Below are positions 2,903 to 4,909 of a stretch of DNA of 21,955 nt, piece after piece; the first letter of the stretch is position 1; each line of letters begins with the position of its first letter. The position numbers and the translations under genes were made by a program. Below the pieces are notes generated by a model. It had not been told where the DNA came from. It ran no database searches and worked only from the letters and a program-made list of their open reading frames with translations. The stretch is from Promethearchaeota archaeon (GTDB lineage Archaea > Asgardarchaeota > Lokiarchaeia > Sigyniarchaeales > SOKP01). The stretch lies in NCBI GenBank assembly GCA_004524535.1, contig SDNY01000058.1, forward strand, positions 1 to 21,955. Direction: 5' to 3'.

Positions 2903-3412
2903 ATGGATCGACAGTTAATGTCAAAAGTTTTATCTCAAATGAAAAAACATCTCGAAGAAAATAAAGAGATTGGCGACTTAAAGGTTGGTGCCTTACTAGC
3001 ATAAATTTTAGGTTTCCTAAAATTAATAGAATTAGGACATCAATTAGAAGCCATATTTTATTATTTAGGTCACGAATTAGGAACTATTCTAAGTGTTAAA
3101 CAAATTAAAGAAGTGAAAGATATTCCCGAAGAGTTGAAGAGTATAATTCCAAAGTATAATATTGGAGATATTATAATTACAGAGAGTACCAATGAAATTA
3201 TTACGCTAAAATTGAAGGGGCACTCTTCTAGTAAAGATCTAATTGGAAAAGGTATAAAAAGTGAAGGGAATTTTTGTTCTTTCGAAGCAGGGATGCTAGC
3301 TGGGATTGTTGAGCGAATGAGTAATGCTCACTGCTTTGCCCAAGAGGTAAATTGTGGTTTACAAACGCAAGAAGATGCATGCGAATTTATGATAGTATTT
3401 CAAAAAGATTAA
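2903..3412 (+). CDS. V4R-domain protein, predicted 159 aa after removal of a 30-nt intron (join 2903-3001, 3032-3412); otherwise a pseudogene with in-frame TAA
   Basis: ATG 2903 is in frame with track ORF 3113..3412; the only stop between them is TAA 3002-3004. C-terminal V4R pattern FCSFEAGMLAG...EVNC...CEF. Confidence 0.8.
3002..3031 (+). other. Candidate relaxed BHB mRNA intron (30 nt)
   Basis: Perfect 9-bp hairpin AATTTTAGG-TTT-CCTAAAATT (3004-3024); exon stem GUGCCUUA/UAGGACAU 7 of 8 pairs; central helix CUAG/AUAG 3 of 4; bulges CA|U and AA|U. Removal deletes the stop and keeps frame. Confidence 0.65.
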
Positions 3413-3525: not shown

Positions 3526-4056
3526 ATGAGTAAAAGAACGTACGTTGTGAAAATTTGTTTATTAGGGGAAGCCAATGTTGGAAAAACTTCATTGGTCTAT
3601 AGATTTATTGAAAATAAATTTAGAGAAAACTATAAAAGTACGTTAGGGGTCAATCTTTTAAAGAAAGACCTTGATATCGAGGCTTTCGGTGAAGTTTCGG
3701 CTCAAATATGGGATCTTGGAGGTCAAGAATCCTTTAAAAGTTTAAGGAAATTATATTTAGAGGGAGCAAATGGCGGTCTTTTAATTTTCGATATGACAGT
3801 GAAGAAAACATTTGAGAAACTCAATGAATGGGTTCAAAGTTTTCAAGAAATCCGAGGAAAACAACCTTTATTGTTAATAGGAAATAAAATTGACTTAGAA
3901 AGTAAGATAAAAATTAAGGAAAACGAAGCTAAAAAATTTGCGCAGAAAAACAAAATGGCTTTCCTCCTGACGTCAGCAAAGACGGGCGATAACGTTGAAA
4001 CGGCATTTAAAAATTTGATCAAAACCATTTTGGAGGAAAATGTTGCTAAAAAATAG
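3526..4056 (+). CDS. Rab-like small GTPase
   Basis: G1 GEANVGKT, G3 WDLGGQ, G4 NKID, G5 TSAK; no C-terminal prenylation cysteines. Confidence 0.95.
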   Translation: MSKRTYVVKICLLGEANVGKTSLVYRFIENKFRENYKSTLGVNLLKKDLDIEAFGEVSAQIWDLGGQESFKSLRKLYLEGANGGLLIFDMTVKKTFEKLNEWVQSFQEIRGKQPLLLIGNKIDLESKIKIKENEAKKFAQKNKMAFLLTSAKTGDNVETAFKNLIKTILEENVAKK

Positions 4057-4261: not shown

Positions 4262-4909
4262 ATGTCAGATGAGGAATTTGATGAGGAAAACGATGAAGAA
4301 GAAGATCATGATTATGAATCTGATTTAGATTATAAAATAGAAAACGTTGTAGCAACTGTAAGTGTTGAACTTACAGAAAAGATAGACCTTAACCAGATTG
4401 CCCGGAAACATGCTGAAGTAGAATATAATCCGGAGAGATTTCCAGGATTGGTAATGCGGATCGAGAAGCCTCGAGCAACTATTCTTATTTTCTCTACTGG
4501 AAAAATGGTTGTAACAGGATTAAGAAAGGCTGTTGAGGCACCAAGAGTTGTTGAAAAAGTGGTTAAAAATATTAGAAAAGCTGGAATTAAACTATCTAAT
4601 CCGGAAATTACAATTCAAAATATAGTAGCCTCAGGAGATCTTCACACAAATATCGACTTAAATATGGCGGCGATTGTAATGGAATATGCCATGTATGAAC
4701 CAGAAGTTTTCCCCGGTTTAATTTATCGAATGCAAGATCCTAAGACTGTCTTTTTAATTTTTAGTACGGGTCGTATTGTTTGCACAGGTGCTAAAAAAAA
4801 GGAAATTGTAAAGGAGGCGGTTTTAAAACTAAATCAACAAGTGCGTGAATTAGGTGTCGCTAAAAAAGATATTTCTGAATCTGAATATCAAGATATAACA
4901 TTTATCTAA
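4262..4909 (+). CDS. tbp: TATA-box-binding protein
   Basis: Two TBP repeats (IENVVAT..YNPERFPGLV..LIFSTGKMVVTG; IQNIVAS..YEPEVFPGLI..LIFSTGRIVCTG) with an acidic N-terminus. Confidence 0.97.
   Translation: MSDEEFDEENDEEEDHDYESDLDYKIENVVATVSVELTEKIDLNQIARKHAEVEYNPERFPGLVMRIEKPRATILIFSTGKMVVTGLRKAVEAPRVVEKVVKNIRKAGIKLSNPEITIQNIVASGDLHTNIDLNMAAIVMEYAMYEPEVFPGLIYRMQDPKTVFLIFSTGRIVCTGAKKKEIVKEAVLKLNQQVRELGVAKKDISESEYQDITFI

Follow-up and report, generated by a model that had tools for sequence, protein, structure and literature searches.

In Crenarchaeota (Desulfurococcales and Sulfolobales), the pre-mRNA of cbf5 contains a bulge-helix-bulge (BHB) intron that is cut by a hetero-oligomeric splicing endonuclease, and according to a passage of the same report, each BHB bulge is cut between its second and third residues (PMC2738675). 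In the literature that we searched, this is essentially the sole recurring case of an archaeal mRNA intron. That search, with subscription journals and supplements outside its scope, returned no paper on BHB introns in the protein-coding genes of Asgard archaea. A recent preprint on the highly interrupted tRNA genes in Asgard archaea leaves open how the introns arrived and makes no mention of mRNA; "protein-coding" comes up in a single passage, which is about neighboring genes. Here we describe a 30-nt block that interrupts a V4R/DUF2507 gene of a Promethearchaeota archaeon (GenBank assembly GCA_004524535.1, contig SDNY01000058.1, positions 1 to 21,955; this whole stretch of 21,955 nt is "the window"). 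As with cbf5, we find a protein-coding transcript with a relaxed BHB intron and with predicted cuts between the second and third nucleotides of the bulges. The gene and the lineage (Asgard, Loki-type) are different, and it is not the same intron.

We conclude with high confidence that the block is a BHB mini-intron that is removed from the mRNA by the tRNA-splicing enzymes; the cleavage and ligation steps are ones that we infer. A BHB intron had been proposed in an earlier, sequence-only reading of the window, and it is now supported: the junction matches that of the orthologs, homologous inserts occur at the same site in other genomes, these inserts show compensatory changes, and the same build appears within essential genes. 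We also think it reasonably probable that ~30-nt BHB mini-introns of a common build, the V4R intron among them, are proliferating and may be mobile in many genes of an Asgard family, in which mRNA splicing would then be obligatory and routine.

An interrupted V4R gene whose orthologs lack the block

The V4R/DUF2507 gene (2903-3412, + strand) begins with ATG at 2903, ends with a stop codon at 3410-3412, and contains one in-frame TAA, at 3002-3004. It is divided as follows:

2903-3001, + strand: exon 1, 33 codons (M...GALLA), which matches residues 1-33 of the 159-amino-acid orthologs
3002-3031, + strand: predicted BHB mini-intron, 30 nt, missing from orthologs, with homologous inserts at the same site elsewhere
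3002-3004, + strand: in-frame TAA, the first codon of the predicted intron, which stops translation of unspliced RNA after 33 residues
3032-3412, + strand: exon 2, 126 codons plus the stop codon, from LGHQLEAIFYYLGHELG... to ...FMIVFQKD

Excision of 3002-3031 fuses ...GALLA to LGHQLEA... in frame. Moving the boundaries by one position to the left (3001-3030) or to the right (3003-3032) gives an identical product. The 126 codons past the TAA contain no further lesion. When read through the block with X, the gene scores 30.2 bits against DUF2507 (PF10702, with a cut-off of 35) and 22.7 bits against V4R (PF02830, with a cut-off of 31), and one or both of these families are precomputed on most of the best 120 of its 355 homologs. 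In what follows, G000 is the genome that holds the window; other G, L, and P numbers are the relatives' genomes, loci, and proteins that we compared. Relative to its nearest relatives, G005 and G002, the gene has a dN/dS of 0.13 overall and of 0.20 for exon 2 alone, while pairs of intact genes give 0.07-0.12.

As the sequence-only reading had anticipated, the ten codons *ILGFLKLIE are missing from the orthologs. Among the best 120 of the 355 homologs, 103 have 159 amino acids, that is, 169 minus 10. In an alignment with 14 homologs (A1), 13 are gapped at exactly the ten columns XILGFLKLIE; the gap falls in the protein's most conserved stretch, where LLA and LGHQLEAIFYYLGHELGT are invariant. 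At the DNA level, we found the gene in 31 of 40 relatives' genomes, and only in G000 is there a stop codon within it. The order comprises 153 genomes, and the gene was matched in 139 of them; 132 of the 139 have no insert at this position, which we call site 1. Full-length matches in the order are 474-477 nt long and contain no stop codons, except for the insert carriers, a few matches with 15-18 extra bases elsewhere, and some that are cut by the ends of contigs.

In three database proteins (P0003, P0011, and P0050), the block is apparently translated, and Q occupies the position of the stop codon. According to the sequence-only reading, orthologs with a sense codon there would count against an intron. 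However, P0050 and the translated L100 locus agree at 177 of 179 residues, and both differences are Q opposite TAG codons in the L100 DNA. To judge from these sequences, the Q residues are most likely TAG codons that the source's gene caller read as Gln. The gene caller seems to have picked a code with TAG as Gln for these short contigs owing to the introns. Separately, we note that L100:821-882 (- strand) and its gene have TAG where the near-identical public protein record has Q.

A relaxed bulge-helix-bulge around the block

The block and its flanks form a relaxed BHB, with two 3-nt bulges on opposite strands (^ marks a predicted cut):

2988-2995, + strand: outer helix h, 5' strand, in exon 1; its partner is 3033-3040
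2996-2999, + strand: central helix H, 5' strand, CUAG, the final bases of exon 1 ahead of the bulge
3000-3002, + strand: bulge 1, CA^U, with the predicted 5' cut after 3001
3004-3024, + strand: inner helix h', a perfect 9-bp hairpin (3004-3012 with 3016-3024) with a UUU loop
3026-3029, + strand: central helix H, 3' strand, AUAG, within the intron
3030-3032, + strand: bulge 2, AA^U, with the predicted 3' cut after 3031
3033-3040, + strand: outer helix h, 3' strand, in exon 2; its partner is 2988-2995

The outer helix has 8 positions with a single C.A mismatch (2991/3037). In the window, the central helix CUAG/AUAG consists of three standard pairs and a G.A, which is the relaxed form. Within the intron, AAUUUUAGG (3004-3012) pairs fully with CCUAAAAUU (3016-3024), and A3003 stands opposite A3025, so that an A.A separates the hairpin from the bulge. 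Every structural element described in the sequence-only reading is present: the TAA, the 9-bp hairpin, the 8-bp exon stem with one mismatch, the G.A, the A.A, and the bulges. If the BHB rule is applied (a cut after the second nucleotide of each bulge), then the cuts fall after 3001 and 3031, which is exactly the ortholog junction. By our reading of its sequence, the tRNA-Pro(UGG) gene of G000 is interrupted by a 28-nt intron that shares this geometry and follows the same cut rule: its helix is UUUG/CAAA and its bulges are GG^A and AC^A.

We propose the following mechanism. In the pre-mRNA, 2988-2995 of exon 1 would pair with 3033-3040 of exon 2, and CUAG, the last four paired bases in exon 1, would pair with AUAG, which lies close to the intron's 3' end; the body of the intron would form the 9-bp hairpin, and two opposite 3-nt bulges would remain. 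The archaeal splicing endonuclease would cut behind the second nucleotide of either bulge, RtcB would ligate the exons, and the excised 30-mer would probably be circularized. The spliced mRNA would then be translated into a 159-amino-acid V4R/DUF2507 protein that is collinear with its orthologs. If the RNA were not spliced, translation would end at the TAA, after 33 residues.

Homologous inserts and covariation at site 1

Seven genomes of the order have an insert at site 1: G000 and six others. In G120, G132, G143, and G146, the insert is 39 nt long and its second codon is TAA, and in G109 and G076, it is 38 nt long and shifts the frame. We also searched genome and metagenome contigs for the pattern of the exon borders, which occurs at 67 places, 25 of them within V4R genes. 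After identical copies were removed, there were 20 distinct site-1 sequences besides the window's. The insert is 30 nt long in three of them, 38 nt in thirteen, and 39 nt in four. All 21 inserts have a stop within the first two codons or shift the frame; they are mutually homologous and have a common 3' half (...CCUAGAAxCxAUAGAA). The frameshift in the 38-nt homologs rules out a translated insertion.

Across these 21 sequences, 84.5% of the cells in the BHB are paired, as compared to 29-48% if the partners are slid by 1-3 columns. The proportion is 89.5% for the outer helix and 75% for the central helix. Double-sided changes occur in 14 cells, a number that none of 500 shuffles reached. They affect five pairs, four in the hairpin and one in the 2-bp helix at its base; 5 of the 500 shuffles reached five pairs. 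The covariation score is 0.143 versus 0.095, and again none of 500 shuffles reached 0.143. RNAalifold, which was blind to the BHB, predicted both the hairpin and the outer helix, the latter in the register that a BHB needs, and counted four compensatory pairs. The 5' strand of the central helix (CUAG) is invariant in all 21 intron-bearing sequences. On the other strand, 3 of the 21 have CUAA instead of AUAG, which gains a G-C pair at one end of the helix and loses a C-G pair at the other (leaving a C.A and three pairs). The central helix is thus always relaxed at site 1.

Two more sites in the same gene

In other genomes, BHB-type inserts are also found at two more sites in the V4R gene. Site 2 lies between the I and F codons of LEAIF, where L055 and L090 have 32 nt, L060 has 35 nt, and L081, L094, and L100 have 30 nt. 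Here the central helix is CUAU/GUAG or CUAU/AUAG, with all four pairs formed, and UAG is created at the junction. A DNA contig from sequencing run X2 has the site-1 block as well as 29 extra letters at site 2. Site 3 lies between the E and L of GHELG and holds 29 nt in G119 (L027); there the CAUG/CAUG helix is fully paired, the bulges read AAA and AAU, and the hairpin has 9 bp. At L062:888-957 (- strand), past the site-1 intron and ...LEAIFY, the reading departs from V4R (TIFFNFLSII...). This could be an intron at a fourth place, or the contig could be chimeric or truncated.

When a tree was built from 34 distinct sequences of the gene's 3' part, which is free of introns, the intron-bearing genes were scattered over several clades. 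The window's nearest relatives in the tree (G005 and G002) have no intron, and the next ones out (L060 and L055) do. The state "none" requires 5 changes on this tree. Judging from the sequences, this distribution would fit with repeated precise loss, repeated gain, or both.

Probable mini-introns in other genes of G000

Blocks of the same kind interrupt at least seven further genes in G000. We first scanned the genome for a central helix with at least 3 of 4 pairs, an outer helix with at least 4 of 5, an inner stem of at least 6, and rescue of an open reading frame (ORF). This gave 751 clusters, mostly junctions between genes. In the following genes, a block lies inside a single Pfam domain:

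C135:24551-24886, - strand: S10 ribosomal protein, 30-nt block
C17:3-548, - strand: RNA polymerase A' (Rpb1 domain 1), 30-nt block
C98:21338-22099, - strand: RNase HII, 30-nt block
C74:8844-10784, - strand: AMP-binding enzyme, acetoacetyl-CoA-synthetase-like, 30-nt block
C144:21779-22576, + strand: AOR (AFOR_N), 30-nt block
C8:2556-3782, - strand: CdhD, 30-nt block
C189:14578-15180, - strand: POR, 30-nt block

Five more genes are candidates with the same build:

C100:9863-12253, - strand: CdhA, no spanning Pfam domain
C180:158-814, - strand: metallo-beta-lactamase-fold gene, no spanning Pfam domain
C101:21487-22242, + strand: ORF just upstream of RtcB, no spanning Pfam domain
C16:2850-3676, + strand: class I aldolase-like gene, 32 nt
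C52 near 18883, - strand: acetyl-CoA-synthetase-like gene, 32 nt

Seven of the 10 blocks that we tested (reading through them with X) are spanned by one Pfam domain. The 13 introns of G000 that we tabulated are 30 nt long (32 nt in two of them); each contains an internal stop, and 10 of the 13 end in AA. They share an architecture and little sequence: 1 nt, a 9-bp stem with a loop of ~5 nt, a 4-nt segment pairing with the exon just upstream, and 2 nt. They are found in phases 0, 1, and 2. In the C52 gene, the upstream exon has just 36 codons, so this gene may have more than one intron.

Other candidates did not hold up. C129 and C65 were rejected because one frame continues through the supposed intron, and C132, C157, C167, C118, C51, and C34 were rejected after reading the peptides because the downstream part resembles the start of the next gene. 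Two candidates in the CdhA gene (L34 and L36) were superseded by the L30 solution, and C114 is doubtful. A relaxed census with 384 rows gave no further clear case in the part that we inspected.

Two of these genes are particularly informative. For S10, the sole copy that we found in G000 is 336 nt long and has three stops; in 33 relatives, the gene has 300-306 nt and no stops. The S10 protein of G000 is 100% identical to that of G008, and the DNA is identical at 275 of 306 nt, so all 31 differences are silent. Because S10 is under such constraint, the gene must be in use and the block cannot be translated. In the RNA polymerase gene (rpoA'), the block is flanked by GHFGH on one side and by IELARP on the other. 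Among the 143 of the order's 153 genomes with a match, the match is 30 nt longer and contains stops in seven (G000, G021, G062, G105, G006, G097, and G010), and the site is common to other genera. Nine more genomes have matches that start just past the site; we inspected two of these (G020 and G023), and both have longer inserts. In rpoA', the central helix covaries: it is GGUC/GGCU, GGGC/GUCU, GGAC/GUCU, or GGGC/GCCC. In G049, the N-terminal halves of rpoA' are on separate contigs (C8:62354-62539 and C64:12424-12708), split near the intron site, which may be an assembly break at an intron or a split gene.

Splicing enzymes, tRNA genes, and sequencing reads

G000 encodes two members of the EndA family (PF01974; 107.9 and 70.7 bits), with 201 codons each, and one RtcB (PF01139; 561 bits). 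The EndA genes are on contigs C100 (ORF at L032:1168-1773) and C84 (ORF at L033:1219-1824), and RtcB is on C101. The best match of the first EndA paralog in the PDB is 3p1z_B (7.6e-37), which is chain B of entries for a heteromeric endonuclease. Asgard archaea are reported to have an (alpha-beta)2 EndA with an L1 loop that confers broad specificity, according to a passage of PMC5829648. By analogy, the two EndA paralogs of G000 are a putative heteromeric endonuclease of broad specificity.

ARAGORN called just 20 tRNA genes in G000, which is rated as 99% complete. Eight of the tRNAs were called with introns, some of which are implausible, such as an "intron" of 2927 nt. The low number of tRNAs fits with the reported hidden introns in Asgard tRNA genes.

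We found 24 sequencing runs, one of which is of RNA, and compared X1, X2, X13, and X3 to the window. A DNA contig from X2 spans 2959-3056 without a gap. X1, which may be the source run, gave 3 short pieces, none of which spans the block.

Weighing the explanations

Several observations weigh against a BHB intron in the V4R gene or against a wider family of such introns. The contig from the RNA run (X13) terminates at 3035 without bridging the junction, and we obtained no spanning RNA read. Among homologs that lack the block, the closest are P0001 and P0002 (96% identical), from short contigs whose molecule type is unknown. The central helix is noncanonical, with G.A in place of a pair in 18 of the 21 site-1 sequences; it has no compensatory change among those 21, and RNAalifold did not return it from them. 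Also, the structure that we counted came from the same related sequences, which flatters the comparison to slid and shuffled controls. The folding energy of an 86-nt stretch is modest evidence (a minimum free energy [MFE] of -17.4 kcal/mol, z = -2.04, with 7 of 200 shuffles as low), and the MFE structure picks a different register for the outer stem. Because the energy signal is only modest, the significance rests on the geometry and on the ortholog comparison. For the rest of the genome, a second scan gave 723 clusters, as compared to 681-803 in 13 controls with shifted junctions, so there was no enrichment, and the scan carries no weight on its own. The other introns were picked by hand, by the continuity of the peptide across the junction, and then checked with Pfam; their number is a lower bound. 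Three of the 10 blocks tested (in CdhA, the metallo-beta-lactamase-fold gene, and the C101 ORF) have no spanning Pfam domain.

The V4R gene might instead be a decaying pseudogene, in which a lineage-specific, in-frame insertion of 10 codons acquired a nonsense mutation and the function was lost. It has one in-frame TAA, gene callers split it, its nearest relatives in the same genus lack the block, and three database proteins apparently read through a similar block. However, orthologs lack the whole block rather than carrying a sense codon in it, and the Q of the apparent read-through matches TAG in near-identical DNA. No later lesion is found in 126 codons, and dN/dS is 0.13-0.20. Frameshifting 38-nt homologs are present in 13 distinct sequences, in genes that are conserved in other respects. 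The same build occurs in S10 and rpoA'; we found each of these just once in the 99%-complete genome, and the differences in S10 are all silent. We consider a pseudogene to be very unlikely. The nonsense mutation that the sequence-only reading had kept as its alternative is a poor fit to a dN/dS of 0.13 and to the same architecture inside essential genes.

If the RNA is not spliced, ribosomes might hop over the hairpin-bearing 30 nt by a programmed translational bypass. Such a bypass would suit the stop directly behind the last sense codon, the stable hairpin that follows it, and the short stop-bearing inserts in essential genes. But bypass requires take-off and landing codons that match, whereas GCA stands opposite GAA here; the border repeats measure only 2 nt in V4R and 0-2 nt in 10 of the 13 tabulated G000 introns. 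Bypass also leaves the 4-nt complementarity between exon and intron, the two 3-nt bulges, and the covariation of the rpoA' helix unexplained, and it has to contend with introns in phases 0, 1, and 2; we give it almost no credence. The block could also be a palindromic mobile element that acts at the level of DNA, or an assembly artifact, with no RNA processing and with working copies elsewhere in the genome or in other cells. Some sites are private to G000 (the S10 insert is in just 1 of the 34 genomes with a match), there are repeats of 0-4 nt at the intron borders, and the possible source run gave no spanning contig. Against this, independent assemblies and metagenomes repeatedly show the V4R insert, the X2 contig covers 2959-3056 without a gap, and our searches of G000 gave only one copy each of V4R, S10, and the N-terminus of rpoA'. 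Nor would a DNA element have any reason to include four bases that are complementary to the exon at the spacing of a BHB, and this explanation seems extremely improbable.

Other genes in the window

The DNA of the window is AT-rich, and the sources of the homologs of its proteins are named as Lokiarchaeia, Promethearchaeia, or other Asgard archaea. Searches of the window with Rfam and ARAGORN gave no matches. Three other genes were noted:

111-2795, + strand: ORF of 894 codons with a match to LAGLIDADG_3 (PF14528, 2.7e-10, residues 542-625); judged by eye, its N-terminal half has three similar segments
3526-4056, + strand: small GTPase gene of the Ras/Roc family (PF00071, 9e-48), directly downstream of the V4R gene
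4262-4909, + strand: ORF that resembles TATA-box-binding protein, with an acidic N-terminus (from reading the translation by eye only)

Implications and comparison with known systems

If such mini-introns have spread through many protein-coding genes, RNA polymerase A' and S10 included, then obligatory mRNA splicing by the tRNA machinery would take place in the closest prokaryotic relatives of eukaryotes. Many Asgard protein-coding genes are apparently served by the same mechanism, with several introns in one gene of 159 codons and with essential genes among the hosts. If this is confirmed, gene calls and counts of "pseudogenes" are systematically wrong for these genomes, and public protein sets already hold mistranslations. 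Asgard cells would need to handle the translation of transcripts that await splicing, which bears on the separation of transcription and translation in eukaryotes. Placing a stop first would prevent aberrant protein from being made from unspliced transcripts. Also, repeated gains of introns with four exon-matched bases would be a tractable system for studying how BHB introns arrive.

As with the cbf5 intron, the V4R intron seems to have undergone gain and loss among relatives. Unlike cbf5, up to three sites are used in one small gene, and the 30-nt build is found in at least seven other genes of G000. The tRNA introns of Asgard archaea share the motif and the enzymes presumed to act on it, and they too arose repeatedly, by lineage-specific gains where a BHB can form. 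In contrast to those introns, the host here is an mRNA whose reading frame must be restored, and the introns carry stops.

Among eukaryotes, HAC1 and XBP1 mRNAs undergo unconventional splicing in the cytoplasm, and the XBP1 intron is just 26 nt long. XBP1 is named as a substrate of RtcB in the abstract of PMC8718801. As we propose for the V4R gene, a very short mRNA intron has cuts that are defined by structure, the exons are joined by RtcB, and the outcome of translation is altered. The difference is that IRE1 acts on two stem-loops, rather than EndA on a BHB, and that the splicing is regulated by stress. If confirmed, the V4R intron would be a prokaryotic counterpart of this RtcB-dependent splicing. 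Translational bypass elements are known from gene 60 of phage T4 and from mitochondria (the "byp" elements). Like the V4R block, they are short inserts that bear hairpins, carry stops, and lie within essential coding sequences. Unlike them, the V4R block lacks matching take-off and landing codons, and it has pairing between exon and intron as well as two 3-nt bulges.

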